From Myxococcota bacterium (GTDB lineage Bacteria > Myxococcota_A > UBA9160 > SZUA-336), in assembly GCA_035499075.1 (NCBI GenBank), contig DATJZN010000056.1:15718-79717 (forward strand): a DNA stretch of 64,000 nt. The letters are read 5' to 3'. The notes beneath the pieces are model-generated. The model saw nothing but the letters and a program-made list of their open reading frames with translations. It searched no databases and had not been told where the DNA came from. Both the position numbers and the translations under genes were made by a program. How positions within the stretch are numbered: the first letter of the stretch is position 1; every line of letters begins with the position of its first letter. Of this stretch, positions 115 to 50,568 are shown piece by piece.

Positions 115-1662
115 ATGCGCGGGCGCCTGTTCGCGGCGATCGCGCTGCTTCTCACGCTGGCGCTCGCCGCCATGGCAGTGCTGTCGCTGTCGTGGCGGGT
201 GACCGTCGACGCTCCGATCATGCTCTACATGGGGCTGCTCGTGGAGCAGCGGCACGCCGTGCCGTACCGCGACTTCTTCGACATGAACCTGCCCGGCAGC
301 TACTGGCTGTACGGAATCCTGGGCCGCGTGTCGGGCGAGAGCGACCTCGGGCTGCGGATCCTGGACCTCGCGTACCTCGGAGCGCTCTCGTGCACGACGC
401 TCGTCTGGATGCGCCGGATCGCCTGGCAGAGCGCGTGGGCCGGCGCCGTGCTGTTCGGCTTCGCGTATCTCGACGGGGGGCCGCTGCTCAGCTTGCAGCG
501 CGAGTATTTCCTGTTGCTGCCGATCTCCGCGGCGGCCGTCCTGGCGGGCACGGAGCGCTGGGACGTGCGACTGCGGGCGCTCGGGGTCGGGCTCCTCTTC
601 GGGCTCACTTCGACGGTCAAGCCCCAGGCCGGTCTCGTGGGGCTACCGGTGCTGGCGGTGTTCCTCGGCGTCGTCGACGGGTCGCTCGCCCGCGGCCACG
701 TCTCCGCGCGGGACTGGCTCGCCCGCGCAGTGGCCCCGGCGGCACTCGGTGCGGCGCTCCCGACGCTTTGCGTGCTGTTCTACCTGTGGCACGCCGGCGC
801 GCTGGCCGACTTCGTGACCGTGGCGCGCGGCTATCTGCCCCTCTACGCCCGGCTCGACGGCTACGGCGAGGCGCGGGCCGGCGCTGCGCGCGCCGCCTAT
901 CTCGTGCGCGGCTTTCTGTTCTTCGGCGGAAACCTCGCCTGGTTCGTGCCGGCCGCGCTCGGCGTGTTCGTCGCGCTGTACCACTCGGAGCTGGCGACCG
1001 CGGCCCGTCGGCAGGTGGGCTTGCTCGTCGGGCTCGCGTTCGCGTACAGCGTCTATCCGCTGTTCTCGGGCCAGTTCTGGGGCTATCACTGGCTGCCGTT
1101 CGTGTATCTGCTGGTGCTCGCGAGCTCGCTGTGTCTCGTGCAGCCCGCCACCACGAGCTCCTTCGGCCGCGCGCTGCCGCCGCTCGCGCTGCTGTTCGCG
1201 TGCGTGCTCATGCTGCGGCCGCCGGACGCGATTCGCCTGCAGGTTCAGGGTCTGCCGCCGCGCCCGCCCGACGGCGGACGCGCCGACGAGATCGCGGCCT
1301 ACCTCGAGTCCCATCTCTTGCCGGGAGACACGGTGCAGCCGCTCGATTGGACCGGCGGCGCCGTGCACGCGATGCTCATCGCGCGCGCCCAGCTCGCGAC
1401 GCCGTTCCTCTACGACTTCCACTTCTATCACCACGTCTCGAGCCCCTTCATCCAGGGCCTGCGCGCGCGCTTCATGGCGGCTCTGCGCACGGCGCCGCCG
1501 CGCTTCGTGCTCCGGCTCGAGGCGAGGCCCTGGCCCAGCGGCCCCGACACGACGCGAGAGTTCCCCGAGCTCGAGGAGTTCCTCGCACAGCACTACGCGG
1601 TCTCCGCGCGCGGTGACGGCTACCAGATCCTCGAGCGAACGGACGCCGCGAGCCCGAGCTAG
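115..1662 (+). CDS. polytopic integral membrane protein, possibly a GT-C-type glycosyltransferase (ArnT/PMT-like); function unassigned
   Basis: 515-aa ORF with GC-rich third positions and more than 10 hydrophobic helices rich in W, Y and F (LLLTLALAAMAVL..., LVGLPVLAVFLGVV..., WLPFVYLLVLASSL...). Its 3' end overlaps the convergent purF stop by 4 nt. Confidence 0.55.
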   Translation: MRGRLFAAIALLLTLALAAMAVLSLSWRVTVDAPIMLYMGLLVEQRHAVPYRDFFDMNLPGSYWLYGILGRVSGESDLGLRILDLAYLGALSCTTLVWMRRIAWQSAWAGAVLFGFAYLDGGPLLSLQREYFLLLPISAAAVLAGTERWDVRLRALGVGLLFGLTSTVKPQAGLVGLPVLAVFLGVVDGSLARGHVSARDWLARAVAPAALGAALPTLCVLFYLWHAGALADFVTVARGYLPLYARLDGYGEARAGAARAAYLVRGFLFFGGNLAWFVPAALGVFVALYHSELATAARRQVGLLVGLAFAYSVYPLFSGQFWGYHWLPFVYLLVLASSLCLVQPATTSSFGRALPPLALLFACVLMLRPPDAIRLQVQGLPPRPPDGGRADEIAAYLESHLLPGDTVQPLDWTGGAVHAMLIARAQLATPFLYDFHFYHHVSSPFIQGLRARFMAALRTAPPRFVLRLEARPWPSGPDTTREFPELEEFLAQHYAVSARGDGYQILERTDAASPS

Positions 1663-20823: not shown

Positions 20824-21246
20824 AGCGTCACCCCGAGCGTGAGTGCGTCCTCGCCGTCGCGGTAGTAGCGCGCGCGGCGTCCCTGCGCTCGAAATCCGCA
20901 CGCGGCGTACAAGGCGAGCGCCGCGGCGTTGCCGCTGCGCACCTCGAGCGACACGTTGCGCGCGCCCGCGGCGCGCAACGTGTCGAGCGCGGCGTCGAGC
21001 AGCGCGCGTCCGAGCCCGCGCCGGCGCAGCCTCGTCTCGACCGCGATCGAGTGGAGCTCCGCTTCGTCGTCGGCGCGGAGCGCGAGCGCGAAGCCGACCA
21101 GGCGCGCGCCCTCCTCCGCGACCAGCGCCACGCCGGTCGGGCGCGCGAGCGCGGCGCGGTACGCGGCGGCGGTCCACGCCTCGGGCAGCGCGTCGGCCGC
21201 GAGCCGTGCGATCGCCGCCGCGTCGTCGGCCCGCGCGGCGCGCAGG

Positions 21247-21257
<11 letters not shown>
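20820..21257 (-). CDS. GNAT-family N-acetyltransferase (RimI-like)
   Basis: 145 aa with the acetyl-CoA motif ...RRRGLGRALLDAAL....GARNVSLEVRSGNAAALALYAACGF... Its start overlaps the 3' end of the response regulator gene. Confidence 0.75.
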
Positions 21258-22610
<1,353 letters not shown>

Positions 22611-22626
<16 letters not shown>

Positions 22627-24851
22627 GGCGCCTCGGTGCGCAGCGGAAGCTCGACGATGAAGCGGCTGCCGCGCGGGCGGTTGGCGGCGACGCGCACGTA
22701 GCCGGAGTGGTCGGAGACGATGCGCGACACGATCGCGAGCCCGAGCCCCGTGCCCGCGCGTTTGGTCGAGAAGCCCGCTTCGAACAGCCGCGCGCGGTCC
22801 TCGGGCTTGATGCCCGCTCCCGTGTCGGCGACCTGCAGGTGGATCGTGCCCACCGCCGCGTCGACGCGCGTCGACAGGCTGACCTTGCGCGGGCCCGGGC
22901 CGGCTTCGTCGATGGCCGCGACCGCGTTGTCGATCAAGTTGAGGATCACGCGCCGGATCTGCTGGCGGTCGAGGTCGAGCATGGGCACCGCCGGGTCGAG
23001 CGCGGTGGTGAACTCGATCGTCGCGTTGCCGCGGTACAGCTCGACGACCTCGGCGGCGACGCGGTTCAGGTCGGTCGGCACGGGGTCGGTCGCGGGCAGG
23101 CGCGCGAAGCTCGAGAACTCCGCGAGCAGGTGCTTCATCGCCTCGACCTCGGCCGTGATCGCGTCGGTGCTCTCGCGCAGGAGCGCGGCGGACTCCGGGT
23201 CCGCGAGCTTGCCGGCCAGCTTGCGGCGCAGCCGCTGCGCGGACAGCTGGATCGGCGTGAGCGGGTTCTTGATCTCGTGGGCGATGCGGCGCGCCATCTC
23301 GCGCCAGGCGGCCATGCGCTGCACGCGCATGAGCTCGGTCACGTCGTCGACGACGACCACGAAGCCCGCGGCCGCGCCCGCCGCGTCGTGCATGCGCGAC
23401 GCGGTCCAGTTGAGCGTGCGCATCTCGCCGGCCACCGCGAGCGGCATCTGCCGCCGCAGCGTCTCCTGCGGGCCCGACGCCAGACGGTGGAGCAGGCCGG
23501 TGAGCGCCTCGAGCGCAGGCCCGCCGAGCATCTCGCCGAGCTTCTTCCCGACCCACTCGCCCGCCGGCACACCCAAGAGGCGCAGCGCGGGCGGGTTGAT
23601 CGTGCGCACCGCGAGATCGGCGTCGAGCGACATCACGCCCGCGCCGACGGCGCGCAGGATGACCTCCATCTGCGTGCGGCGGCGCTCGAGGTCGGCGCGG
23701 TTCTTCGCGAGGTCGGTCGCCATGCGGTTGAAGCCGTCGACGAGCGCCGCGATCTCGTCGTGGCCGCCGCGCGGCACGCGCACGTCGAGGTTGCCGGCCG
23801 CCACCTCGGCCGTCGCGCCCGCGAGCTGCTCGATCGGCTCGGTGACCTGCTTGGCGAGGCGGAAGCCGATCCACGACGAGAAGAGCACGCTCGACAGCGT
23901 GATCATCGCTAGCAGCAGCATCATGCTGGCCTCGAAGGTGCCCTTGCGCGGCTGCAGGCGTTCGTACGCCGCGCGCGCGGAGCGGATGGCGGCCACGCGC
24001 GTCGAGATGTCGTGCGGCAGGAAGCGGTTCACCACGACGACGCCCGAGATCTCGCGCGCGTCGGCGCTCTGGTGCACGGGCACCACCGCGCGCACCAGCT
24101 CGCCCGGGCCGGCGCCCTGGATGACGCTGTGCTCCTCGCCCGCGAGGCCCGCGCGGATCAGCGCCGACGTCGGCGCCTCGAACGCCACGACCGCCACCTC
24201 GGGATGGCGCGCCGTCGCGAGCTCCTCGAGGTCGCGGTTGAACACCTCGACGACGCCGAGGTCGTACTCCGCCTGCTTCTGCGCGACGAACTCGCGCAGC
24301 GCGTCGAGCGAGCCCGGGCGCAGCAGCTTCTTCTCGTCGAGCTGCGCGGCGATCCGGCGCGCGAACGACAGCGAGGTGTCCTTCGCCTCCTTGTAGTACG
24401 CGTCCGCCACCTCGATCGACTGGCCCAGGCTGTCGGAGAGCTCGAGCTCGAACCACACGCTGACGGCGCGCGACACGAGCAGCGCCGACAGCACGAACAG
24501 CGCCGTCGACGACAGCGCCGTCGCGAACACGAACGACGTCACGAAGCGCGTGTTGAGCTTCGAGCCGAAGCGCCCCGCGCGGCGGTCGACGAACAGCTTC
24601 ACGACGTTGCGCGACAACAGGAACACGAGCAGGCCGATCAGCACGACGCTGACGTTCAGGATCGCCAGCAGCACGGTGTCGCTCGCGAGCGGGAGCGAGT
24701 GCGCGCGCGTCAGGAGCTCCTGTTCGACCGTGAACAGGAGCAGCAGAGCGGCGCCCACGCCCGCCGCGATGCGCCAATCGCGCCGGCGCCGCCAGCGCTC
24801 GGCGGGATCGGGGCTGCGCTCGGGTGGGTTCGCGGGTTCCAAGCGCCCCAA
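22611..24851 (-). CDS. sensor histidine kinase, NtrY-like (TM, HAMP, PAS, HisKA, HATPase)
   Basis: N-terminal hydrophobic helices, then a HAMP linker, a PAS-like segment, and the H-box (...ARRIAHEIKNPLTPIQLSAQRL). G1 and G2 boxes follow (...DTGAGIKPED...GTGLGLAIV). Start is probably TTG at 24849-24851 or 24840-24842. The rest of the 2,434-aa track ORF upstream is the antisense of the TPR gene. Confidence 0.8.
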
Positions 24852-24980
24852 CGCTAACGCAGGCGCGAATTTCCTTTCAACCTTTCCGCGCGCATGGCCT
24901 CGCCGTAAGACCGTGAAAAATCGCCGGTTTGGACGCGGTCCAGCGTCAAGAGTTACAGGGGGGATTCCGAAGAGGCCGGC

Positions 24981-27900
24981 ATGCAGCCGCGCCCGCGCAC
25001 GCCGTCCGTCCGCACGTCCCCGGAGCAGGCCGAGCGCATTCGGCGCTTGCTGCAGGGCTTCGCCACGAACCCGACCGACGCGCGCGCGTTCCGCACGCTC
25101 GAGGAGCACCTGTACCTCGAGGGGGCGTGGACGGAGCTCGCGAGCGTGTACGACTGCCGGCTCTCCGTGCTCGCGCCGACCAGCGCCGAGCGCGCCGAGG
25201 TGCTGTCGCGCGCGGCCGCGATCTACAGCGACCGCCTCGCCGACGTGGCACAGGCGCGCGCGCGCTACGAGGAGCTGCTGCGCATGCAGCCGCAGAACGC
25301 GGCCGCGCTGTCGAGCTTGCGGCGGCTGCTCGCGGCGGCGGGCGACGCGACGAGCGCGCTCCAGCTCGCGGAGGCCGAGGAGGCCCTGCCGCTGCCGCCG
25401 CGCGACCGCGCCCAGCTCTTCGCGGAGATCGGCCAGCTGTGGCGCGGCCTCGGCGACAAGGAAGAGGCGCGCCGCCGCTTCGAGGCCGCGCTCGAGCTCG
25501 ATCCCAAGTGCGACCCGGCGGTGCAGGGCGCGGCGCTGCTCGCCGAGGACGCCGGCGACCGCGCCCGCGCCCTCGCGCTGCACGAGAGCCGCCTGCCCGG
25601 GCTCACGGGCAACGTGCGCGCCGACGTGGTCGAGCGCATGGCGCGGCTCCTGCCGACCGAGGAGAGCGCGCGCCGCGCGGCGCTCCTGCGCGAGGTCGTG
25701 GCGAACCACCCCGAGCGGCGCGGCCCGCACGAGCGGCTGATCGAGATCGAGCGCGCGGCGCGGAACTACGCGGTCGTCGACGAGCTTCAGCGCGCGCTGT
25801 GGAAGCTCCTGCACGACCCCGTCGAGCGCGTCAGCCTGGCCAGCGGCGCGGCCGCGCTGCAGATGGACGAGGCGCAGAACGTCGAGTCCGCCGCGTACTG
25901 GGCCGAGCGCGCCGACGAGATCGCCTCCGACGACGCGGCCGTACAGAAGCTGCGCCTGCGCATCCACCGCAAGGCGGGCACGACGCGGGCGAGCCTCGAC
26001 GCGCTCGAGAAGCTGGCCGCGATCGAAGGCCACTCGCCCATGCGGCTGCTCGAGCTCGCCGTGCTGTACGAGCGCGAGGGCCAGTCGGCGCAGGCGATCG
26101 AGAAGCTCGAGCGCCTGCTCGCCCACGATGCCTACGACGCCGAGGCACTGGCGATCCTCGACCGCTGCCTGGCGCGCATGGGCCGCCACGCCGAGCGCGC
26201 CGAGGTGCTCGAGCGGCGCATGGCCGCCGCCGAGAGCAACGAGGACGCCGCCGACCTCATGGTCGAGCTCGGCGACCTGCACCTGCACGCGCTGGGCGAC
26301 GCCCGCAACGCCGAGGCCGCCTACCGCCGCGCGCTCGAGCAGGTGCCTGCGCACGCCGCGGGCGCCGCACAGCTGCGCGAGCTGTTGCGCTCGAGCGGCC
26401 GCGGCGGCGAGCTCTGTTCGCTCCTCGAAGGTCTGGCGCGCTCCGCACCGCAAGGGCGCGGGCGCGCGGCGCTCCTGTGCGAGCTGGCCCAGCTGCGGCT
26501 CGAGGCCGGCGCGCCGCCGGCCGAGGCGCACGCCGCGTACTCGGAGGCCCTGGAGTGCGACCCGAGCTGCGCGTCCGCGCTGGCGGGCATGCGCGAGCTC
26601 GCCGCGACCACCCGCGAGCCGCGGGCGCTGCTCGAGGTCGCCGAGCGCGAGCTCGCCCTCGAGCCGCCCGCCGAGCGCGCGGCCGCGCTCCTGGCCGACG
26701 TCGCGCAGGCTGCGCACGCGCTCGGCGAGCCCGAGCGGGCCCGCGCCGCCGCGCAGCGCTGGCTCGAGCTCGAGCCCTCGCCCGCCGCGCTGGGGCTCCT
26801 GGCCGAGCTCGCGCGCACCGACGGCGACTTCGCCGCGGAGGAGCGCTGGCTGGGCTCGCTCGAGGCCGTCGTCTCGGGCGCGGACCCGCGCGCCCACGCG
26901 CTCGTGTGCGTGCGCCTGGCCGAGCTCGCGCTCGCGAAGAGCGGGCCCGAGGCCGAGGCGGACGTGGAGCGCTGGTACCGCGCCGCGCGCGCGAGCGCGC
27001 CGACCGACGAGGCGCTCGGCGCGCGGCTCGTGGAGTTCTACCGCCGCACGCAGAAGCTGCCCGAGCTGGCGCGCGAGCTGCGCACACAGCTCGAAGCGGC
27101 CGGCGCCGCCGCGCCGCTCGCACAGGCGCTCGAGCTGGCGCGCACCCTGGCCGAGCTCGGCGACCTGGTGCAGGCGTCGGCCGTGCTGCAGCCGGCGTTC
27201 GAGCGCGAGCCCGAGTCCGTCGCCGCGGGCGACCTGCTCGAGAGCCTGCTCGCCGAACAGAACCGCATCGAAGAGCTGTGCGAGGTGCTCGCGCGGCGGC
27301 TGTCCCGCGAGCGCGACCCCGCGCGGCGGCGCGAGCTGGCGCACCGGCAGGCGGGCCTGCTGCTCGAAGGCCTGCGGCGCGCGCCCGACGCCATCGCCGT
27401 GCTGCGCGAGTTCGCCGACCCGACGCGCGACGGCCGGCTCGAGCACCTGTTCGCGCGCGCCCTCGAGGCCGGCGGCGAGACGCGGGAGCTCGAGAGCTGG
27501 CTCACCATGCGCGAGGGCCACGTCTCTGGGGCCGAGCGCACCGAGCTGCGCCTGCGTCTCGCCGCGCTGCTCGAGCGCGACGGCCGCGTCGCGGATGCGA
27601 TCGCTTGCCTGAAGCGCGCGCGCGACGGAGCCTCGAGCCCCGCGCTCGCCGCGACCGTGCGCGGCGCGCTGCTCGCGCTGCTGCGCGCGCACGGCACGGT
27701 CGATGACCAGCTCGCGTTCCTGGACGAAGGCATCCAGAGTGCGCCCGACGCGGAGGCGCGCGGCACGCTCCTCGTCGAGCGCGCGCGCATCTTCGCGGAA
27801 CGCGTGCGCGACCCGGCGCGCGCGCTCGCCGACTTGGAGCGCGCGCAGGCCGACGGCGCCCTGGGACCCGACGAGCTCCGACTCGTGGCCGAGCTCTCGG

Positions 27901-30900
27901 CCACGGCCGGCGCGCCCGAGCGCCAGGTGCACGCGCTGGAGCAGCTCGTCGAGACCGCGCGGGACCCCGAGACGCGGCGCGCGACGCGCCTCGAGCTGGC
28001 GCGCCTGTGGGCCGACGGTCCCGAAGCCGTGCGCGACGCCGCGCGCGGCGAAGAGATCTTGCGCGCACTGCTGCGCGAGAACGGCGCCGACGCCGACGCG
28101 TTCGACCGCTTGTCCGCGCTCTTCGAGCGGGCCGAGCGCGGCGTCGAGCTGCGCCGCTTGTTCGGCGAGCGCCTGGCCGAGAGCGCGCTGCGCCCCGGCG
28201 AGCGCGCGTCGCTGGCGCTGCGCCTGGCGCGCCTGCAGCTCGCGTCCGGCGACGCGCGCCAGGCCGTCGAGACGCTCGTCGGCGCGCGCGTCGGGGGCGA
28301 GACGCCGGACCCGGCCGTCGACGAGCTCCTGTACGGCGCGCTCGCACGCGCGGGGAACACCGGCGGCCAGATCAAGCTCGCGACCGAGCGCGCGCGCGGC
28401 GCGGCGGGTGCAGAGCGAGCGCGCTGGCTGCGGCGCTGGCTGACCGCGCTCGAAGCCGCGAGCCGGCCGGCGAGCGAGCGCTTGGAAGTCGTCGACGCGC
28501 TCTTCGCCGATGGCCCCGGCGACGCCGAGCTCCTGGCGCTGCGGCTGCCGCTCCTGCGCGAGGGCGCTCCGGCCGAGCGGCTCGCCGAAGGCCTCGAACG
28601 CGTGCTCGCGCGCGCCGACGCGGGCACGCCCGCCAGCCGGCGGCTGTGGGTGCGCGAGCTGCTGGCGCTGTACGAGGGTGCGCTCGAGCGGCCCGACCGC
28701 GCGCTCGCGCTCGTCGAGCGCGAGCTGGGCGCCGACTCCGGGCTGCGCGAGCCCGGCCTGCGCGCCGCGCGCGCGCTCGGCGACGAGTCGCGCGAGCTCG
28801 CGCTGCTGCGGCCGCTCGCCGGGGACGCCGGCCTCGCGCCCGCCGAGCTGCGCCGGCTCGGCCTGCTGCTCGCGCGCGCGGGCGAAGGCGACCTCGCCTA
28901 CACGATTCTGTGTCGCGCGCGGACCGCCGCGCCGCTCGACCGCGAAGTGCTCGAAGCGCTCGAGGCACTCGTGCGCGAATCGGGCGAAGACGGCGAGCTG
29001 CTCGGCGTGCTGTCCGCGCGCTTCGCGACCGAGGCCGGCGACGCGCGCCTGCGCGTGGCCCGCGACGCCGCCGCCGCGGCCGCGCGCGCGGGCGACGCGG
29101 CCGCCGAGCTGGCCTGGCTGCGCAAGCTCCACGCGCTGGCGCCGCTCGACCGCGAGGGCGCGTCGCGCTGGCTCGCGCTCGAGCGCCAGGCCGGTACGCC
29201 CGGCGGCCGGCTCGAGGCCGTGCGCGCGCGCGCCGCACTCGCGACCGAGCAGTCCGAGCGCGCCGAGCTCGCGGCGGCCGAAGGCGAGCTCCTCGCCGAC
29301 GGCGGCCAGCTCGCCGAGGCGAGCGCGTGCTACGCGCGCGCGCTGTCCGGCGCGCCGCGCGCGAAGCTGGCCTGGCTTCGCGCACAGAGCGAGCTGCTCC
29401 TGCGGCTCGGCCGCTCCGCCGAGCGCGTCGATCTGCTGCGCACGTTGGCGCGCCATCCCGAGGCGAGCGCCGACGAGCGGATGCGCTGGCAGCGCGAGCG
29501 CATCGAGCTGCTCGCCTCGCATCCCGAGCTCCGCGAAGAGGCCGCGCTCGAGCTGCGCATGTGGCTCGACTCCGACCCCGGCGCCTCGCGCGCAGCCCAG
29601 CTCGAGCGCATGCGCTCGCTGCTCGCGCTCTATGCCGAGCTCGGCCGCGACGCCGACTGGTGCGCCCTCGCGGAGCGCGCGCTGCCTCTCGCGCCCGACT
29701 CCGAGCGCGCCGAGCTCGAACGCCGCATCGCCGAGCGGCTCGGCACCTCCCTCGGCTCGACCGATCAGGCGATCTCGGCCTGGCAGCGCGTGCTCGCGCG
29801 CAACGCGAACGACCGGGACGCCCTCGCTGCGCTGGCCGGCCTGTTGCGCCGCCCCGGCGACGAGGCGCGCCGCGCGGACACGCTCGAGCGGCTGGCCGCG
29901 TCGGGCGCCGAGCACGCCGAATCACTCTGGCTCGCCGCCGCGCGCTTGCGCTGGCAGTCGCTCGGCGACGCGCCCGCCGCGCTCGTCGCGGTCGACCGCG
30001 CGCTCTCGCTCGCGCCGCGCCTCGACGGCGCGCACGACCTGCGCTCCGAGCTCTGCTCGCACCTCGACCGCCACGAGGACGAGGCCGCCTCGCTGCGCGC
30101 GCTGCTGGCGACCGACGCCGAGGGCCCGATGGCGGGCGACCGCTGGCTGCGGCTCGCCCAGCTCGTGGCCGCCCGGCGCGAGGGCTGGAGCGAGGCGATC
30201 GAAGCCGCCGAGCGGGCGCTGGCGACGGCGCCCGCCCAGACGTCCATGGTGCGCGAGGTGCGCCGCGTGTTCGAGCGGGCGAACGCCTGGGAGCGCGCAC
30301 GCGACCTGTTGCGGGAGGAGATCGGCGCGTCGACCGGCGAGGAGGCGCTCGGCCTGCACCGCCGGCTGGCGCGCATCGCCTGGGACGAGCTCTCCGACGA
30401 CGAGCTCGCCTGCAAGTCGCTCGCGGCGCTCGACGACGCGGAAGCGCTCCGCGGCGACGACCGCGAGCGCTACGCCGCTGCGCTCGCCGAGCAGGGGCGC
30501 TGGCGCGAGTCGCTCGACCAGCGCCACGCAGCGCTCCTCGAGTCGGGCGACCTCGCGACCGCGGCGCGCTGGCTCGAGCTGGCCCGCGACGCGCTCGCCA
30601 AGCTCGACGACCCGTCGCGCGCCCGCGAGGCCTGCGACCGCGCGCTCGAGCGCGAGCCAAAGCACCGCGACGCGCTGCAGCTGCGCACGCTCCTGCACGG
30701 CCGGCTGTGCGATCCGGCGCGCGAGTTCGGCGACGTGCTCCAGCTGGCCGAGCTCGAGTCCGACCCCTCGTCTGCGGCGGCGCTGTTCACACGCGCCGCC
30801 GAGATCGCGCGCGACCGGCTCGGCGATCCGCTGCGCGCCTGGGCGCTCTTCCGCACCGCGCTGAAGAAGGACGGCGCGCACCTGCCCGCCCTGCTCGGCG

Positions 30901-32741
30901 CCGGCCAGATCGCGCTCGAGCGCCACGAGTGGGCCGAGGCCGAGCGCGCCTTCGGGCTCGCGGCGTCGCTGTTGCGCGGGTCGCCCGACGAGGACAAGCT
31001 CGGCGGCGTGGCGCGCTCGGCGGCCTCGGCCGCGATCGCGCAGGAGCGCTTCGCCGAGGGCTTCCGCTACCTCGAGCTCGCGCTCGAACGCGAGCCCGCG
31101 CACCCCGAAGCGCTCGACGCGATGGCGGGCCTGGCCCTGCGGCTGGGCGCGCACGCGCGCGCGCGCGAGTGCCTCGAGACGCGGCTGCGCTCGCTCGAGC
31201 TCTCGCCCGAGGAGCGCGCCGACCGGCTCGTGAAGCTGGCGCAGGCGTGTGAGGGGCTCGCGCAGCTCGACCGCGCCGCGGCCGCGCTCGAAGAGGTGCT
31301 CTCGATCCGGCCGAGCGACGAGGTGTCACGCGCGCACGCCGTCGACCTGCTCGAGCGCCTCGGCGAAACCGAGCGCGCGGTGCTCCAGCTCGACGCCTGG
31401 AGCGAACACGTGCCGGCGGAGTTCGCGGCCCGCCTCGCGCTGCGCGCCGCGCAGCTCGAGCTCTCACAAGGCGACCGCGCGCACGCGCGCGAACGCCTCG
31501 AGGCGATCGTACAGGCACCGGCCGCGCCCGACGACGCGTGGGTGGCGCTGCTCGACCTGGTGCGCACCGACGACGGAGCGGCGGCCGGGCTCGATCTGGC
31601 GTCCGACGCGCTCGCCGCCGTGAAGGCGCCAAAGCCGCGCGCGGCGCTCTTGTGGACCGCGGCGTCGGCCTCGGCGTCGCTGGGCCAGAACGGCCCCGCG
31701 GCGCGCCGTGCGATGGAGGTGCTCACCTGCGACCCGGCGCACGTGGCGGCGGCGCGGATGCTCGCGGGCAACCTCGGCCACCTGGAGGATTGGGGCCAGG
31801 CGGTGAAGCTGCTCGAGCGCACGCTCGACAGCGCGCACCCCGAGCGCCCGGTCGAGGCCGAGCTCTGGGAGGCGGTGGGCCGGGCATACGCGGGTCCGCT
31901 CGAGGACATCGAGCGCGCGCAGCGCTGCTACCGCCGCGCGCTCGAGTGCAACCCGCTGCGCCAGAGCGCGCGCGAGGCGCTGGCGGACACGACTGCTTTC
32001 GATCCCGCGGCGCACCGCGAATCGGTCGAAGCGCACCGCGGCCTGCTCGAGCGACACCCGGGGCGGCGCAGCTCGTGGCGCTCGCTCGAGCGGATCGCCG
32101 CGCACTGGCGGCGCGACCGCGCGCAGACGACGTGCGTGGCCGTGCTGCAGGCGCTCGGGCCCGCGGGCGGCGCCACGCCGATCGAAGGCGCGCCGCTCGT
32201 CGACGTCGGCCCGCCGGCCGACTCGACGGTCGCGGCCGCGACCGAGCTCCTGCTCGCCGTCGGCGAGGCCGGCGCGCTGCCGGAGCCGAGCGAGCCGCGT
32301 CCCTACCCCGCGTTCGCGGGCGCGCTCGAAGAGGCGCTCGGCGCGCTCGTCGGCCCCGCATGGCGGCTCTCCGACGCCGCGCTGCGCGCGATCTGGAGCC
32401 AGCCGGGCGAGGACTCCACGCAGACGGGCGACGAAATCGGCCGGCGTGCGCGCCGCCGCCTGAAGCGCGCGCTGCGCAGCTTCGACACCGAGATGCTGCG
32501 CGTGCTCGCGCCCGACGTCTGGCGCGAGCAGGTGCTGGGCCAGGCCGCGGCGAAAGTGCTCGCGGCCGGAGGCATGGAGCTGCGCGACCTCTTGCTCGAG
32601 CTGCTCGCGGGCTGGCCCACGACGGCCCGGCTCGAGCTCCGCGCGAGCGGCGACGTGGCGTCGGCGGTCGCGCTCTGCCCGCCGGCGCGCGTGCTCTTGC
32701 TGCGCGTCGCGAGCGCCGTGATCGGAGCGCTGGGGCTCTAG
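24981..32741 (+). CDS. giant (2,586-aa) all-TPR-repeat protein, function unknown
   Basis: One uninterrupted 7,761-nt ORF with GC-rich third positions and an AAGAGG ribosome-binding site 7 nt upstream of its ATG. The product is A/L/R/E-rich, with 34-residue TPR-like signatures recurring from N- to C-terminus (AEAAYRRALEQVP, ALELDPKCDPA, ALEREPKHRDAL, ALECNPLRQSA...). There is no signal peptide or TM segment. Confidence 0.8.
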   Translation: MQPRPRTPSVRTSPEQAERIRRLLQGFATNPTDARAFRTLEEHLYLEGAWTELASVYDCRLSVLAPTSAERAEVLSRAAAIYSDRLADVAQARARYEELLRMQPQNAAALSSLRRLLAAAGDATSALQLAEAEEALPLPPRDRAQLFAEIGQLWRGLGDKEEARRRFEAALELDPKCDPAVQGAALLAEDAGDRARALALHESRLPGLTGNVRADVVERMARLLPTEESARRAALLREVVANHPERRGPHERLIEIERAARNYAVVDELQRALWKLLHDPVERVSLASGAAALQMDEAQNVESAAYWAERADEIASDDAAVQKLRLRIHRKAGTTRASLDALEKLAAIEGHSPMRLLELAVLYEREGQSAQAIEKLERLLAHDAYDAEALAILDRCLARMGRHAERAEVLERRMAAAESNEDAADLMVELGDLHLHALGDARNAEAAYRRALEQVPAHAAGAAQLRELLRSSGRGGELCSLLEGLARSAPQGRGRAALLCELAQLRLEAGAPPAEAHAAYSEALECDPSCASALAGMRELAATTREPRALLEVAERELALEPPAERAAALLADVAQAAHALGEPERARAAAQRWLELEPSPAALGLLAELARTDGDFAAEERWLGSLEAVVSGADPRAHALVCVRLAELALAKSGPEAEADVERWYRAARASAPTDEALGARLVEFYRRTQKLPELARELRTQLEAAGAAAPLAQALELARTLAELGDLVQASAVLQPAFEREPESVAAGDLLESLLAEQNRIEELCEVLARRLSRERDPARRRELAHRQAGLLLEGLRRAPDAIAVLREFADPTRDGRLEHLFARALEAGGETRELESWLTMREGHVSGAERTELRLRLAALLERDGRVADAIACLKRARDGASSPALAATVRGALLALLRAHGTVDDQLAFLDEGIQSAPDAEARGTLLVERARIFAERVRDPARALADLERAQADGALGPDELRLVAELSATAGAPERQVHALEQLVETARDPETRRATRLELARLWADGPEAVRDAARGEEILRALLRENGADADAFDRLSALFERAERGVELRRLFGERLAESALRPGERASLALRLARLQLASGDARQAVETLVGARVGGETPDPAVDELLYGALARAGNTGGQIKLATERARGAAGAERARWLRRWLTALEAASRPASERLEVVDALFADGPGDAELLALRLPLLREGAPAERLAEGLERVLARADAGTPASRRLWVRELLALYEGALERPDRALALVERELGADSGLREPGLRAARALGDESRELALLRPLAGDAGLAPAELRRLGLLLARAGEGDLAYTILCRARTAAPLDREVLEALEALVRESGEDGELLGVLSARFATEAGDARLRVARDAAAAAARAGDAAAELAWLRKLHALAPLDREGASRWLALERQAGTPGGRLEAVRARAALATEQSERAELAAAEGELLADGGQLAEASACYARALSGAPRAKLAWLRAQSELLLRLGRSAERVDLLRTLARHPEASADERMRWQRERIELLASHPELREEAALELRMWLDSDPGASRAAQLERMRSLLALYAELGRDADWCALAERALPLAPDSERAELERRIAERLGTSLGSTDQAISAWQRVLARNANDRDALAALAGLLRRPGDEARRADTLERLAASGAEHAESLWLAAARLRWQSLGDAPAALVAVDRALSLAPRLDGAHDLRSELCSHLDRHEDEAASLRALLATDAEGPMAGDRWLRLAQLVAARREGWSEAIEAAERALATAPAQTSMVREVRRVFERANAWERARDLLREEIGASTGEEALGLHRRLARIAWDELSDDELACKSLAALDDAEALRGDDRERYAAALAEQGRWRESLDQRHAALLESGDLATAARWLELARDALAKLDDPSRAREACDRALEREPKHRDALQLRTLLHGRLCDPAREFGDVLQLAELESDPSSAAALFTRAAEIARDRLGDPLRAWALFRTALKKDGAHLPALLGAGQIALERHEWAEAERAFGLAASLLRGSPDEDKLGGVARSAASAAIAQERFAEGFRYLELALEREPAHPEALDAMAGLALRLGAHARARECLETRLRSLELSPEERADRLVKLAQACEGLAQLDRAAAALEEVLSIRPSDEVSRAHAVDLLERLGETERAVLQLDAWSEHVPAEFAARLALRAAQLELSQGDRAHARERLEAIVQAPAAPDDAWVALLDLVRTDDGAAAGLDLASDALAAVKAPKPRAALLWTAASASASLGQNGPAARRAMEVLTCDPAHVAAARMLAGNLGHLEDWGQAVKLLERTLDSAHPERPVEAELWEAVGRAYAGPLEDIERAQRCYRRALECNPLRQSAREALADTTAFDPAAHRESVEAHRGLLERHPGRRSSWRSLERIAAHWRRDRAQTTCVAVLQALGPAGGATPIEGAPLVDVGPPADSTVAAATELLLAVGEAGALPEPSEPRPYPAFAGALEEALGALVGPAWRLSDAALRAIWSQPGEDSTQTGDEIGRRARRRLKRALRSFDTEMLRVLAPDVWREQVLGQAAAKVLAAGGMELRDLLLELLAGWPTTARLELRASGDVASAVALCPPARVLLLRVASAVIGALGL

Positions 32742-45320: not shown

Positions 45321-45797
45321 TCATTTGCGGCGAAGCGCGAGCGCCGCGAGCGGGCTCGCGAGCACGGCCGCGTAGATCAGATAGAGCCACGGGAACTGGC
45401 CGACGTAGAAGTCGTGCGCCGAGAGCGAGACCGGCGTGCGCAGCCAGACGAAGCCGAGGTAGTCGACGGGCAGCGCGAGCGCGAGCCAGAGCGCGCCGAG
45501 CGCCCAGCCTTCCCTGCGCGCCGCCAGGCCGCGCGCGCGCCCGCGGAAGTAGAGCGCGGCGAACGGCGTCCACACGGCCAGGTTCAGGATCGGCAAGAAC
45601 CTTTCGGCGAAGCGATAGCCCGGCGAGTCGAGCGGGCGGCCCGCCGGCGCGTCGCCGAGCCAGGCGACGGCGGCCAGGCAGAAGGCGGTGGCGACGACCG
45701 TGACGGCCGCGTACGCGGCCGCGAAGGTCCACAGCGCCCTCGGCCAGCGAATCGGATACTGGATACTTCTACTATCCATAATAGGGATACTAGACAT
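45321..45797 (-). CDS. small W/Y-rich integral membrane protein (function unknown)
   Basis: GC-rich third positions. Four predicted TM helices (...WTFAAAYAAVTVVATAFCLAAVAWL..., ...GWALGALWLALALPV..., ...FPWLYLIYAAVLASPLAALAL). The annotated N-terminus (MSSIPIMDSRSIQYPI) is encoded by the AT-rich operator region, so the real start is probably further downstream. Confidence 0.5.
   Translation of the reverse strand: MSSIPIMDSRSIQYPIRWPRALWTFAAAYAAVTVVATAFCLAAVAWLGDAPAGRPLDSPGYRFAERFLPILNLAVWTPFAALYFRGRARGLAARREGWALGALWLALALPVDYLGFVWLRTPVSLSAHDFYVGQFPWLYLIYAAVLASPLAALALRRK
45754..45791. promoter_or_regulatory. AT-rich operator/promoter island: three GGATACT direct repeats, a TGGATA-N7-TATCCA dyad and a CATAAT -10-like hexamer
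   Basis: GGATACT at 45754-60, 45761-67 and 45785-91. Palindrome TGGATACTTCTACTATCCA at 45760-45778. CATAAT at 45777-82. 36-70 bp upstream of the MerR-family gene and overlapping the 5' end of the divergent membrane-protein ORF. Confidence 0.5.
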
Positions 45798-46541: not shown

Positions 46542-46979
46542 TCAGCTCCCCGCCGTGCTCAGCGCCTCGGCGAGAGCCTCCCAAGCCAACGTGGCGCAGC
46601 GCTGACGCGAAGGCAGCGCCGCCACGCGCCCGAAGGCGCGCAAGCGCGGATCGAGCTCGGGTCCGGGCGGCTCGCCGCGCACCACGCGCGCGAGCTCGGC
46701 GCCGAGCGCGCGCGCTTGGGCCGGCACTGCGCCGTGGACCAGCTCGGTCATCACGCTGCCCGAGGCCACGGCGATCGAGCAGCCGCGCGCGCGGGCGGAC
46801 ACGTCGGCGATCTTGCCGCCGGCGAGCTGCACCTCGACGCGCACCTGGTCGCCGCAGATCGGGTTCGCGACCTGCGCTTCGCCGCTCGGCGCCGCCAGCG
46901 GCGCGCGGTGGCGCGGGTTGCGGTAGTGCTCGAGCACGACCTCGCGGTAGAGCGACTCGAGCTCGCTCAGGTCGGACAC
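46542..46979 (-). CDS. sufU: SufU/IscU-like Fe-S cluster assembly scaffold (Zn-dependent sulfurtransferase type)
   Basis: ...LYREVVLEHYRNPRHRAPL....ANPICGDQVRVEV...GCSIAVASGSVMTELVHG..., the three conserved Cys of the NifU N-terminal domain. GTG start at 46977-46979; 145 aa. It is the 3' part of track ORF 46542..47465. Confidence 0.7.
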   Translation of the reverse strand: MSDLSELESLYREVVLEHYRNPRHRAPLAAPSGEAQVANPICGDQVRVEVQLAGGKIADVSARARGCSIAVASGSVMTELVHGAVPAQARALGAELARVVRGEPPGPELDPRLRAFGRVAALPSRQRCATLAWEALAEALSTAGS

Positions 46980-47836
46980 TTCGCGGACTCGAGCGGGCCG
47001 TCGGGCACCTCGACGCCCGCGTCCGTGATCCGCACGCCCTTCACGTCCATGAGCCGGCGCGCCGTCGTGTCCGCGCCGCGCAGCCGCTGCACGATCTCGG
47101 CCAGGATCGAGAGCGCGATCTCCTGCGGCGTCACCGCGGCCAGGTCGAGCCCCGCGGGCGACGCCACGCGGCGCAACCGCTCTGCCGACACGCCGTCCTC
47201 GTGCAGCCGCTCGAGCACGAGCGCGCTGCGCTTGCGGCTCGCGACGAGCCCCACGTAGGCCGGCGACTGGCGCAGCACGCGCTGCAACGCCTCGTAGTCG
47301 CTCTTGTGCTGGGTGGCGATCACGACGTAGGTCTGCGCGTCGCATTCGGCCTTTGCGTAATCGGGGTCCTCGGTGACGCGCAGGTCGGCGTCGGGGAACG
47401 CCTCGCGCGTCGCCAGCGCGTCGTTCACGGTGACGTGGAAGCCGAGCGCGTGGCCGAAGCGGCACAGCGTCTCAGCGATCGAGCCGTGACCCAGCACGAG
47501 AAGCTTCGGAGCTTGCATCATCGCCTCGACGTAGATGTCCATGTGACCGCCGCAGGGCATGCCGACGCCGAGCACCTCGTCGTCGAGGTCGAGCCGCACC
47601 AGGCGCGAGCCTCGCTCGGCCATCACCTCGCGCGCGACGTCGCGCACGGTCGATTCCGCGCAGCCGCCGCCGACCCAGCCGAACACGGTGCGGCCCTGCG
47701 CGTCGATGATCGACTTTGCGCCCGGCTTGGCCGACGCGCTCCCTTCGACGCGTACGACCGTCGCGACCGCGACGTTCTCACCCGCCGCGAGCCGCGCGGC
47801 GAGCGCGCGGGCGAAGTCCGTGGCCGAGGCTGCCAT
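46967..47836 (-). CDS. XdhC/CoxI-family molybdenum-cofactor insertion accessory protein
   Basis: ...AVATVVRVEGSASAKPGAKSIIDAQGRTVFGWVGGGCAE... is the XdhC N-domain. ...KLLVLGHGSIAETLCRFGHALGFHVTVND... is the Rossmann-like C-domain. Confidence 0.8.
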   Translation of the reverse strand: MAASATDFARALAARLAAGENVAVATVVRVEGSASAKPGAKSIIDAQGRTVFGWVGGGCAESTVRDVAREVMAERGSRLVRLDLDDEVLGVGMPCGGHMDIYVEAMMQAPKLLVLGHGSIAETLCRFGHALGFHVTVNDALATREAFPDADLRVTEDPDYAKAECDAQTYVVIATQHKSDYEALQRVLRQSPAYVGLVASRKRSALVLERLHEDGVSAERLRRVASPAGLDLAAVTPQEIALSILAEIVQRLRGADTTARRLMDVKGVRITDAGVEVPDGPLESAKCPT

Positions 47837-47905: not shown

Positions 47906-49813
47906 ATGCGCGTTCAGCCGAGGTTTGCCCAGCTCGCGGCGGGCGCCGCATTCGCCGTCGTGGTCGCCACTGCGGCGCTCTGGCTCGACCCGCCGTCGCA
48001 GGCCGGGGCGCAGGGCCGCCCGACCCAGTACCTGGCGCGCTTCGAGGGCAGCACCCTCGACGGCAAGCGCGCCGGCTCGGACCTGTTCCAGAAGCGTCGC
48101 GGCGTGATCTTCTTGTGGGCCGACAAGGACCCCGACCGCGACCGCGCCGCGAAGCTGCTCACGGGCCTCACGCGGGACGCGGAGCGCGCGAACGTGGGCG
48201 TGCTCGGCGTGAGCCGCGACCCCGACCCCGCGCTGGCGCAGCACTACGCCAGGCTGCGCGGCTTCGAGTTCCCGATCCTGGTCGACGGCGACGGCGCGAT
48301 CGCGCGCAAGCTCGACGCCCCGCCCGGCACGTCCATGCTCGTGCTCGTCGACGCCGAGGGCAAGATCGTGGCCCAGCTCGCCGGGCTCGCGAGCCAGCCG
48401 ACCGAGATCGACGCCGGCCTGGTGGCGCAGATGCGCCAGCTCATGCAGCTCCCGCCCGACGACGCAGCCGCGACGCCGATCTTCGGCGTACTGCCCGCCG
48501 CGCCGCCGTTCTCGGTCACGAGCACCGACGGCGCGCACACCGCGCAGCTCTCGGACTACTCGGGCAAGGTGCTCGTGTTCCTCTTCTTCCTGCCCACCTG
48601 CCCGCACTGCCACGCGATGCTGAAGTACCTGAACGGGCTCGCCGCGCAGCTCGGCGCCCAGGATCTCGCGATCGTCCCGGTGTCGGTGTCGGACAAGAAG
48701 TACGTGGTCGAAGAGATGGTGAGCGACCTGAAGCTCGGCTTCCCCGCCTACCTCGACCCCGACCGCAAGGCGCAGAACGCCTACGGCTCCCTCGGTGAGG
48801 TGCCCGAGGTCTTCGTGATCGACCGTGCGGGCAAGGTCGTGCAGCGCACGGCAGGCGACTCGCCCCGTATCGAGGCGCTGGTGACGCTCTCCATCCGCCA
48901 CGAGCTGGGCGGCCCGCCGCAGATCCTGCTCGACAAGGCGGGCTACAGCGGCGACGAGTTCTGCGCGGTGTGCCACCGCGATCAGCACGCGACGTGGCTG
49001 CTCACCGGGCACGCGAACGCGTGGGACACGCTCGTCGAGCACGGCGCCGACCGCGACCCGCAGTGCCTGCGCTGCCACACCGTGGGCTTCGGCAAGCCCG
49101 GCGGCTTCGACCCGGAGCAGCGCCCCGACCACCTGAAGGGCGTGCAGTGCGAGAACTGCCACGGTCGCGGCGGCCCGCACCAATCGCCCGACTTCGCGAA
49201 GACGGGCTTCGAGCCCGTCTGCCTGGGCTGCCATGACGCCGACCACTCGCTGCACTTCGTGTACGCGGAGCGGCTGCCCATGATCTCGCACGCGGCGAAC
49301 GCCGCCGCGCTCGCCAACCTGTCCGTCGACGAGCGGCGCAAGCTCGCCGAGAAACGCGCCAAGCGCGACCGGCAGATCTTCGACCCCGGCGAGTTCGTCG
49401 GCTCGGCGGCGTGCGAGAGCTGCCACGCGAAGGAAGCCAAGCTGTGGGCCGAGTCGGGCCATGCGCGCGCGTTCGAGACCCTCGACAAGCGCCACGAGGC
49501 CAAGAACGCCGACTGCCAGAAGTGCCACACCACGGGCTTCGGCCAGCCGACCGGCTTCCCGACGGGTGGGGCTACACTCGCGAGTGTAGGCTGCGAGAGC
49601 TGTCACGGGCCGGGCAAGCGCCACGTCGAAGACCAGGGCAAGACGTCGGGCACGATCCTGGCGCTCACCAACAAGTGCGACACGTGCGCGATCCAGATGA
49701 TCTGCGGCACGTGCCACGACGACGCGAACGACAAGGGCTTCGAGTTCGCCATCGAAACCAAGCTCGCGAAGATCAAGCACGGCTTCCGCGAGAAGAAGAC
49801 GGCGGAGAAGTGA
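47906..49813 (+). CDS. secreted fusion protein: two TlpA/redoxin-like thioredoxin-fold domains followed by an octaheme c-type cytochrome domain
   Basis: Signal peptide [27 protein letters not shown]. Thioredoxin fold with active site LPTCPHC. Then eight CxxCH motifs (CAVCH, CLRCH, CENCH, CLGCH, CESCH, CQKCH, CESCH, CGTCH) arranged as two tetraheme cytochrome c554/c552-like modules (CxxCH..W..GH). The ATG is at 47906-47908. Confidence 0.8.
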
Positions 49814-50568
49814 CGACACGGGGCGACGCCGACACCTGGATCGCGGTGCGGGAGGGCCTGCGCGACCTCGTCGCGGACGGCATCGACTTCGTACCGCGCG
49901 CGGAGCGCAGCGCGAAGCCGGCCGCGCCGCGTGCGCCGAGCGGCTTCCGGCCGCGCGTCGCGCCGCTCGCCCCGCCCGCGCACGTCGGCGCAGATGCGGC
50001 CGCGAAGGCGGCGCTGCTCGAGGCGGTGCGGGCGGAGATCGGCGACTGCCGCCGGTGCACGCTGTGCGAGCGCCGCACGAACATCGTCTTCGGCGAGGGC
50101 TGCCCCGAGGCGCGCGTCGTGTTCGTCGGCGAAGGCCCCGGCGAGGAAGAGGACAAGAGCGGCCGCCCGTTCGTCGGTCGCGCGGGCGAGCTGCTCACCA
50201 AGATGATCGAAGCGGTGGGCTGGCGGCGCGAGGACGTCTACATCTGCAACATCGTGAAGTGTCGCCCGCCGGGAAACCGCGACCCCCAGCCGCTCGAAGT
50301 CGCCACGTGCGAGCCCTTCCTGCACCAGCAGATCCGGGCGATCGCACCCGCCGCGATCGTCACGCTCGGCAAGCCGGCGATCTCGGCGCTGCTCGGGCGC
50401 GTCGTGCCGATCACCAAGCTGCGCGGGCGCTGGCAGGCGTGGCAGGGCATCGAGGTCATGCCGACGTACCACCCCGCGTACCTGCTGCGGAATTACACGC
50501 GCGAGACGCGCCAGGCGGTCTGGGACGATCTGCGCGCCGTGCGCGAGCGTGTCGAGGGCGCGCGCTAG
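49810..50568 (+). CDS. uracil-DNA glycosylase, family 4
   Basis: ...[27 protein letters not shown]...[14 protein letters not shown]... are family-4 UDG motifs. The preceding Cys cluster ([14 protein letters not shown]) is the [4Fe-4S] cluster typical of this family. GTG start overlapping the cytochrome TGA (GTGA). Confidence 0.85.

Follow-up and report, generated by a model that had tools for sequence, protein, structure and literature searches.

The window analyzed here, a stretch of 64,000 nucleotides from a Myxococcota bacterium (assembly GCA_035499075.1, contig DATJZN010000056.1, positions 15,718 to 79,717 of the forward strand), has a G+C content of 70-79% and contains a gene for a predicted secreted protein in which two thioredoxin-fold domains (Trx1 and Trx2) precede an octaheme c-type cytochrome (Table 1). 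The open reading frame (ORF) is intact and lies in frame +2 of the + strand, running from an ATG at 47906 to a TGA at 49811-49813 and encoding 635 amino acids (aa). A Shine-Dalgarno-like GAGG was noted a few bases 5' of this ATG. The longest mechanical version of the ORF begins at a GTG at 47201, which is not taken as the real start because that stretch overlaps the divergent XdhC-like gene. The N-terminus reads as a hydrophobic helix (aa 6-25) with a possible A-G-A/Q-G cleavage site and without a lipobox Cys, and the AlphaFold2 (AF2) model likewise places a helix at 6-25 ahead of a stretch of low predicted local confidence (pLDDT) at 25-36. These features suggest an N-terminus of the Sec type, either a signal peptide or an anchor.

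The product contains 20 Cys, two of them in C232-P-H-C235, sixteen in eight CxxCH motifs and two in C591-D-T-C594. A regular-expression search for C..CH returned nine matches rather than eight because His236 comes directly after CPHC; shuffled versions of the protein gave 0.02 matches on average and two at most (20,000 shuffles). The first-pass annotation of this DNA, made from the letters alone, had proposed a fusion of thioredoxin-fold and octaheme modules in one gene, and this was borne out by the single intact ORF, which matches Pfam AhpC-TSA/Redoxin twice and Cytochrome_C554 twice. It had also correctly placed a CPHC in the second thioredoxin module (aa 232-235) and arranged the eight CxxCH motifs as two tandem c554-like tetraheme units, which share 31% identity (E = 9e-19). 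Two details required revision: the thioredoxin part spans approximately 300 rather than 400 aa, with the cytochrome part beginning near aa 345, and the spacing given as CxxCH-x3-W is actually CxxCH-x6-W. The tenth CxxC, C591-D-T-C594, was absent from that annotation.

Table 1. Features of the thioredoxin-octaheme gene and of selected neighbors, in window coordinates.
Feature	Position	Strand	Basis
Whole gene, Trx-Trx-octaheme protein, 635 aa, predicted secreted	47906..49813	+	Single ORF, homologues, AF2
Putative signal peptide or membrane anchor, aa 1-~35	47906..48010	+	Inferred from sequence and AF2 helix
Trx1, Cys-free redoxin/thioredoxin fold, aa ~40-180	48023..48445	+	Pfam, PDB profile, AF2
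Trx2, ResA/TlpA/CcmG-like thiol-disulfide oxidoreductase domain, aa ~195-335	48488..48910	+	Pfam, PDB profile, Foldseek
Active site C232-P-H-C235, then H236	48599..48613	+	Homologue alignment
Tetraheme unit A, aa ~345-475, CxxCH at 353/387/415/439	48938..49330	+	Pfam Cytochrome_C554
Tetraheme unit B, aa ~495-628, CxxCH at 503/537/563/600	49388..49789	+	Pfam Cytochrome_C554
Unit-B-only 13-aa insertion I584-I596 with C591-D-T-C594	49655..49693	+	Gap in unit A/B alignment
Family-4 uracil-DNA glycosylase (UDG) gene, GTG start	49810..50568	+	Pfam UDG 1.9e-41
XdhC/CoxI-like gene, divergent, 70 bp upstream	46967-47836	-	Pfam
NifU_N-like gene	46542-46997	-	Pfam
DsbA-like protein (Thioredoxin_4/DSBA), ~9.5 kb downstream, syntenic in L001, L003 and L004	59351-60121	+	Pfam

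Each thioredoxin-fold domain was scanned in isolation. Trx1 matched AhpC-TSA (E = 2.8e-8) and Redoxin (1.6e-5) over approximately aa 45-157, and its PDB profile matches were to BCP/DsbF (profile positions 36-166). It aligns in register with Trx2 at 20% identity, and its secondary-structure elements follow the same order in the AF2 model. The first Cys of the whole protein is residue 232, so that Trx1 contains none and is, judged from its residues, redox-dead. Trx2 gave stronger Pfam matches (AhpC-TSA 7e-22, Redoxin 3.5e-17; approximately aa 201-316) and PDB profile matches ranging from 5e-21 to 1e-16, among them 3KCM (5e-21) and ResA (7.6e-20). A Foldseek comparison of the AF2 model with ResA (1ST9/1SU9) yielded target-normalized TM scores of 0.88-0.90 and root-mean-square deviations of 1.6-1.8 Å over 136 columns. 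The cis-Pro loop lies at V299-P300, where P300 is invariant and aligns with the cis-Pro of ResA. The model was computed from a 72-sequence alignment, and its output is without hemes; it has a mean pLDDT of 87.4, a predicted TM score of 0.83 and interdomain linkers at pLDDT 85-88. The packing between domains is thus predicted to be rigid with good confidence, which points to a working enzyme. A structural search of the PDB with this model found no chain covering more than one domain (query-normalized TM at most 0.22).

By fold and motifs, Trx2 belongs to the TlpA-like superfamily. It does not fall into the named orthologue groups ResA, TlpA and DsbE, since the NCBIfam scores lie far below the respective cut-offs (ResA NF002854, 69.5 bits vs 170; TlpA NF047696, 25.7 vs 230; DsbE TIGR00385, 24.5 vs 123). 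It shares with ResA, TlpA and CcmG (DsbE) the fold, a CxxC where helix 1 begins, a 'VPE/D..VID' motif in the cis-Pro loop and an extracytoplasmic location, here predicted. The known proteins, however, are stand-alone or membrane-anchored single domains that are recycled by CcdA or DsbD and act in trans on apocytochromes or copper proteins, whereas the domain described here is fused to a dead thioredoxin copy and eight hemes, carries a DsbA-type CPHC and has no equivalent of ResA Glu80, the aligned position being non-acidic. The CxHC dipeptide is of the type found in DsbA and PDI, that is, in oxidases and isomerases, while ResA, TlpA and CcmG use CEPC, CVPC or CPTC. Two other assignments of Trx2 were rejected. 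A peroxiredoxin, the JGI name of many homologues, would carry a PxxxT/SxxC motif, which is absent: in F-L-P230-T231-C232-P-H-C235 the Thr stands at -1 from C232 and -4 from C235 rather than at -3. The Pfam AhpC-TSA match reflects the shared fold. A DsbA has the CPHC motif, but Trx2 has no DSBA or Thioredoxin_4 Pfam match and its fold is ResA-like.

Among close homologues, C232, H234 and C235 are invariant and P233 is nearly so. His236 is found in 116 of 118 close homologues, CPHC is followed by His in 116 of 119 sequences of the close clade, and CPHCH is present in at least 98% of 118 full-length homologues. It was noted that this string fits the CxxCH heme consensus, which raises the question of whether a thioredoxin active site was converted into a ninth heme-attachment site in the close clade. 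We consider this highly improbable. Distant members of the same architecture have CPHC followed by K, Q, R, M, L or I, or have CSHC or CGHC instead (these three dipeptide types account for most cluster representatives), and the variable residue after CPHC makes a general ninth heme site unlikely. In addition, the second Cys of a thioredoxin fold is buried, and AF2 models a normal ResA-like site.

The fusion was examined further through homologue searches. A set of 5.8 billion proteins returned 430 matches, and nearly all of the top 120 measured 600-677 aa, aligned at 46-75% identity over 92-100% of the query length and carried the same Pfam set, under generic source names such as 'redoxin domain-containing protein [Myxococcota bacterium]', 'peroxiredoxin' and 'multiheme c-type cytochrome'. 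The same fusion was thereby found in 118 full-length colinear homologues, nearly all from metagenome-assembled genomes (MAGs) of uncultured Myxococcota, so that orthologues are not always split into two genes; all 20 Cys are conserved in these sequences. A frameshift or assembly artefact is excluded by colinearity with more than 120 homologues. No stop was found between the thioredoxin and cytochrome parts; the only one encountered is an amber codon at 411, inside heme unit A, on JGI metagenome contig Ga0335079_10099046 (L095), which is 99.9% identical (3 mismatches in 3305 bp). There, AAG is changed to TAG (K411 to amber) at position 1630 (window 49136), 19 nt ahead of an N417T substitution, and the gene call is split into pieces of 410 and 223 aa. 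The amber may be a nonsense allele present in the population, or else an error of sequencing. Little was gained by searching with heme unit B on its own, which yielded just 16 short fragments but brought the split call on this near-identical contig to light. Taken by these alignments, the Trx-octaheme fusion is genuine and conserved as a single gene.

A profile search of 1.84 billion cluster representatives then recovered 230 clusters (50% identity) at E<=1e-30. Their architectures include two thioredoxin domains with eight hemes, one with eight hemes (440-515 aa), tetratricopeptide repeats with one thioredoxin domain and eight hemes (P0145, 1082 aa), and an unassigned, Cys-poor N-terminal domain of approximately 195 aa with eight hemes (the P0173 group). 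The one-Trx subfamily alone accounted for 758 matches at E<=1e-20. In P0173, P0179, P0181 and P0188 (e.g., L090:309-1754), the N-terminal domain lacks a redox CxxC and is followed by an octaheme with the C591xxC594 insertion; the comparison of this domain with Trx1 by hhalign gave a weak match (E = 0.002, probability 13%). The 17 best GTDB species representatives (L005-L021) are all MAGs labelled Myxococcota or 'Deltaproteobacteria', with a few other labels, and none of these 17 is from a cultured organism. All are full length except L019, which is without Trx1. The building blocks are familiar, and their combination is, in these searches, conserved and widespread in uncultured Myxococcota. 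The architecture had initially been called unusual, which holds against characterized proteins, as no full-length PDB match, no curated NCBIfam family covering the full architecture and, in our literature searches, no published description of a Trx/TlpA-multiheme fusion was found; it does not hold for metagenomes, where the fusion is not rare.

This distribution also bears on whether the domains communicate at all. The thioredoxin and cytochrome parts could be independent and merely tethered, or the thioredoxin folds could dock or scaffold an ordinary electron-carrier octaheme. Trx1 is already redox-dead, one subgroup has only a Cys-free N-terminal domain, and multiheme modules are reported to be grafted promiscuously onto other domains (10.1101/2025.05.29.656830). 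We nevertheless regard the absence of any intramolecular redox link as improbable, given that the Trx2 CxxC, the cis-Pro and C594 are invariant across 46-100% identity and two subfamilies, and that the predicted arrangement of the domains is rigid and confident. If there is no coupling, the protein would be a common domain fusion of Myxococcota MAGs and nothing more.

We next consider the cytochrome part, which scored 92.9 bits against Pfam Cytochrome_C554 (PF13435; cut-off 20.8) over two stretches of the whole protein. When scanned alone, unit A reached 57.0 bits (E = 4e-15) and unit B 52.8 bits (E = 7.7e-14). The sequence match of unit A in the PDB was OcwA (6I5B), and unit B aligns with Nitrosomonas cytochrome c554 (1BVB/1FT5), with which the heme part has the motifs CxxCH-x6-W-x4-H and '[10 protein letters not shown]' in common. 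The conservation of His and Cys was measured over the cytochrome regions of 280 relatives with eight hemes, drawn from the two-Trx and the one-Trx subfamilies, and all eight CxxCH motifs were invariant. The motifs therefore predict eight c554-type sites of covalent heme binding in two duplicated units. The protein is not an orthologue of c554 (CycA), since it scores 70.7 bits against NF043010, whose cut-off is 400, and unlike in CycA the module is duplicated and fused to thioredoxin folds.

The two units differ in their candidate distal ligands. Those conserved across the family number four in unit A (H369, H425, H447 and H462) and three in unit B (H519, H573 and H625), the latter being the same number for four hemes as in c554, in which heme II is five-coordinate. 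Where unit A has H447, unit B has Asn or Trp in 258 of the 280 relatives, and positions 361, 379 and 511 are variable, the last being His in 61%. A side observation concerns this residue, the unit-B counterpart of H361 (window 49436-49438): among 118 aligned sequences it is Ala in the query only, and otherwise His (77%), Tyr (14%) or Phe (8%).

Unit B further contains the insertion with C591-D-T-C594, in which C594 stands six residues ahead of C600, the start of the heme-8 motif. C594 was present in all 280 relatives and C591 in 272; ten sequences without C591 in a broader survey retained C594. The aligned parts of c554 and OcwA are without such an insertion ahead of the fourth heme. With unit B short of one conserved sixth ligand and an invariant C594 adjoining, one heme of this unit may be five-coordinate or His/Cys-ligated.

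Relatives without any thioredoxin domain provide a further comparison. The stand-alone octahemes P0228 and P0267 have no Cys insertion and carry 'CH-NP-H' after the fourth heme motif, that is, a His three residues past the fourth-heme His, in both units. A third, P0198, has both features, the C591/C594-type insertion and the His three residues past the fourth-heme His. These proteins bear on the second functional idea of the first-pass annotation, that of a cytochrome carrying its own maturation reductase, in which Trx2 would keep the 16 heme Cys reduced in cis during heme attachment by Ccm or System II. ResA and CcmG do this job in trans, and Trx2 is ResA-like. A single CxxC, however, would need eight recyclings by an external reductant to serve 16 heme Cys, so that the fusion gives no autonomy. 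The octaheme also persists in relatives whose N-terminal domain is free of Cys or missing altogether, P0228, P0267 and P0198 being complete stand-alone proteins. Self-maturation also leaves Trx1, the C591/C594 insertion and the missing distal His unexplained, and CPHC is not the dipeptide of known apocytochrome reductases. We regard this idea as poorly supported and very unlikely.

The conservation of C594 beyond that of the thioredoxin CxxC, which can be absent (P0173 group, P0198), together with the lack of a conserved fourth distal His in unit B, would also suit a different kind of enzyme. In this alternative, a unit-B heme and C594 would form a catalytic center for a small sulfur or selenium compound (polysulfide, thiosulfate/tetrathionate, sulfide or selenite), and Trx2 would only resolve or regenerate a Cys594 adduct. 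The best NCBIfam match of the protein is NF041198, the 'UshA-like (seleno)protein' family of PCGU type, of which it is not a member (183.9 bits vs a cut-off of 275). The C-terminal ~130 positions of that profile (~387-518 of 519) match both tetraheme units, while its N-terminal 5'-nucleotidase-like part (COG0737) is absent here; the same heme module is thus appended to another periplasmic enzyme containing cysteine or selenocysteine, and that family carries a CxU motif (PMC2398784). Periplasmic c-type heme and multiheme proteins offer parallels: in TsdA, SoxAX, DsrJ and MccSep, S-S bonds are formed or cleaved by a cysteine or selenocysteine at or next to a heme, the hemes serving as electron sink or source, and in MccSep such a center reduces polysulfide (10.1101/2025.11.18.688581). 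None of these has a thioredoxin-fold CxxC domain or a sequence relationship to the present protein, including TsdA, SoxA and MccSep, and the His/Cys ligation proposed here is drawn from a missing His and an invariant Cys. Sulfur-metabolism neighbors were seen at no locus examined, and the housekeeping gene context described below speaks against a niche respiratory enzyme. A sulfur or selenium enzyme is accordingly rated as unlikely.

Of the two functional ideas first put forward, electron transfer between thiol/disulfide and heme pools appears the better supported, because an invariant extra Cys pair adjoins heme 8 and unit B is one distal His short. Our tentative preference is for a single-chain periplasmic thiol/disulfide:cytochrome c oxidoreductase, a reading to which we give less than even odds, in which the CPHC pair would be coupled to the heme chain through C594/C591. 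Trx2 would perform thiol-disulfide exchange with a substrate, and C594/C591, beside a five-coordinate or His/Cys-ligated heme, would act as the converter between one-electron heme chemistry and the two-electron dithiol/disulfide couple of Trx2. Trx1 may serve as a non-catalytic scaffold or substrate-binding module, comparable to the b domains of PDI or the second thioredoxin domain of QSOX, and the remaining hemes would link the converter to the cytochrome pool of the periplasm. The reaction, which may be reversible, would run toward disulfide formation with the hemes as electron sink, as in DsbA-DsbB, VKOR-Trx and QSOX but with hemes replacing quinone or flavin. This direction is weakly favored because of the CxHC dipeptide, the downhill flow of electrons from a dithiol to the cytochrome pool, and the housekeeping context.

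The QSOX, VKOR-Trx and DsbA-DsbB systems resemble the proposed arrangement in that a second Cys pair couples an active CxxC thioredoxin domain, covalently or functionally, to a cofactor that accepts electrons. In QSOX, one thioredoxin domain is active and the other redox-inactive, and a second CxxC lies beside the cofactor. The likeness is one of analogy only, as the cofactor domains are not homologous and the cofactors are c-type hemes here as opposed to FAD or quinone. Heme and Cys/Sec (selenocysteine) centers that make or break S-S bonds have precedents in MccSep, TsdA and SoxAX (10.1101/2025.11.18.688581).

Several points weigh against this coupling. We know of no precedent for direct electron transfer between heme and disulfide without a flavin, iron-sulfur (FeS) cluster or quinone at a thioredoxin-fold CxxC, and the ResA/TlpA fold mostly serves reductants. 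Nor is CPHC by itself enough to make a thioredoxin scaffold oxidizing: introducing it into the archaeal thioredoxin AfTrx3 raised the midpoint potential by only 66 mV, to -221 mV (PMC4395160). AF2 places no hemes, and the proximity of C232/C235, C591/C594 and a heme to one another is presumed. Within the heme domains, the model is least confident at the insertion (pLDDT 59-71), as would be expected of a cofactor-dependent loop. The C591/C594 pair may be a structural disulfide, as it is also present where an active thioredoxin domain is missing (the P0173 group and P0198), and H511 could be the fourth ligand in the many members that have it. Lastly, the gene neighborhoods differ between subfamilies and give no partner.

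The same coupling could run in reverse, in which case low-potential hemes, supplied by the cytochrome pool of the periplasm, would reduce C591/C594 and then the Trx2 disulfide. Such a heme-driven periplasmic disulfide reductase would feed apocytochromes, methionine-sulfoxide reductases, peroxiredoxins or isomerases independently of DsbD or CcdA. Both the fold and the best matches of Trx2 fall in the reductive ResA/TlpA/CcmG/DsbE class, and the potentials of multiheme c7/c554-type hemes are often low. Two stand-alone redoxins, which are possible clients, lie beside the gene of one distant member, and the ORFs examined in the window include neither CcdA nor DsbD, a negative whose scope is these ORFs. 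Against the reductase stand the CxHC dipeptide, which is atypical of reductants (CEPC, CVPC, CPTC or CGPC), the non-acidic residue aligned with ResA Glu80, and the energetics, as only donors of very low potential would spare disulfide reduction an uphill course from a cytochrome pool poised by quinol. With CPHC still at -221 mV in a thioredoxin scaffold (PMC4395160) and a ResA/TlpA scaffold that mostly serves reductants, the reductive direction remains a strong rival, which we consider rather improbable on its own.

To our knowledge, every known link between dithiol/disulfide chemistry and an electron-transport chain uses either a two-/one-electron converter or a transmembrane Cys relay. The converters are quinone (DsbB, VKOR), FAD (Erv, QSOX, thioredoxin reductase) and FeS (FTR, Hdr), and the relays are those of DsbD and CcdA. 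Heme-coupled disulfide exchange by a thioredoxin fold would, if true, be new chemistry, and a thioredoxin active site hard-wired to a c-type heme chain would be a further solution that ties envelope thiol homeostasis directly to the cytochrome pool. The broader proposal, a heme-wired thioredoxin whose CxxC exchanges electrons directly with c-type hemes through a Cys pair next to a five-coordinate or His/Cys-ligated heme, free of flavin, quinone or FeS cluster, as a periplasmic housekeeping machine of DsbB/QSOX-like or DsbD-like kind in a large uncultured Myxococcota lineage, is put forward as doubtful. Given the size of the family and its clearly delimited candidate residues (C232, C235, C591, C594 and the absent unit-B distal His), the coupling idea is directly testable.

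The genomic surroundings were then examined. The GTG start of the UDG gene (49810) overlaps the stop codon of the thioredoxin-cytochrome gene in a GTGA, so that the two are probably co-translated; it was noted as odd that a DNA-repair enzyme of the cytoplasm would share an operon with a redox protein of the periplasm. In the closer clade, the gene order is NifU_N, XdhC, Trx-cytochrome, UDG, ceramidase-like and AroE, the neighbors all being housekeeping or cytoplasmic genes. UDG and AroE adjoin the Trx-cytochrome gene down to 36% protein identity, whereas XdhC and NifU_N are syntenic with it only at identities of at least 48%. There is no molybdoenzyme gene near the XdhC/NifU_N pair. Farther 3', UDG, the ceramidase-like gene and AroE are followed by GDH and acyl-CoA dehydrogenase genes, and the end of the window holds an ABC system, the DsbA-like gene, a DUF1499 gene and a CDF transporter. 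Elsewhere, the window encodes purL, purB, hisG, PNPase, IF-2, NusA, dihydroorotate dehydrogenase, LpxC and a Ser/Thr kinase, as well as DnaK/DnaJ-like proteins (assigned by synteny), a thiolase, an aldehyde dehydrogenase and MerR. Genes for DsbB or VKOR were not seen in the window, and the ORFs scanned there include no ccm, ResB/CcsA, CcdA or DsbD genes. These core-genome surroundings suggest a housekeeping rather than a niche respiratory role and name no partner.

The contexts of the one-Trx subfamily all differ, comprising a GMC oxidoreductase, an FGE-sulfatase with two redoxins, an MFS transporter and an NAD synthase. In the second of these (L087:3352-9121, P0176), two stand-alone redoxins and a 494-aa protein lie ahead of the one-Trx gene and an FGE-sulfatase-domain protein follows it, a possible multi-redoxin operon. 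Among the stand-alone octahemes, P0228 sits in a cluster resembling those for multiheme extracellular electron transfer, beside ResB/CcsA genes. A Rosetta-stone test on P0198 found an AAA ATPase, not a redoxin, in the gene upstream.

Additional observations were made elsewhere in the window. The ORFs at 115-1662 (+), 20929-22614 (+), 22720-24396 (+) and 45321-45797 (-) have coding-like codon bias or are long, and have no Pfam match at E<=1e-4 or 1e-5. The most G+C-rich part (77-79%) holds an ORF of 2586 aa (24981-32741, +) with few matches, to TPR Pfam families only, which possibly encodes a giant repeat-rich protein, and an antisense ORF of 2434 aa (22611-29915, -) mirrors it.

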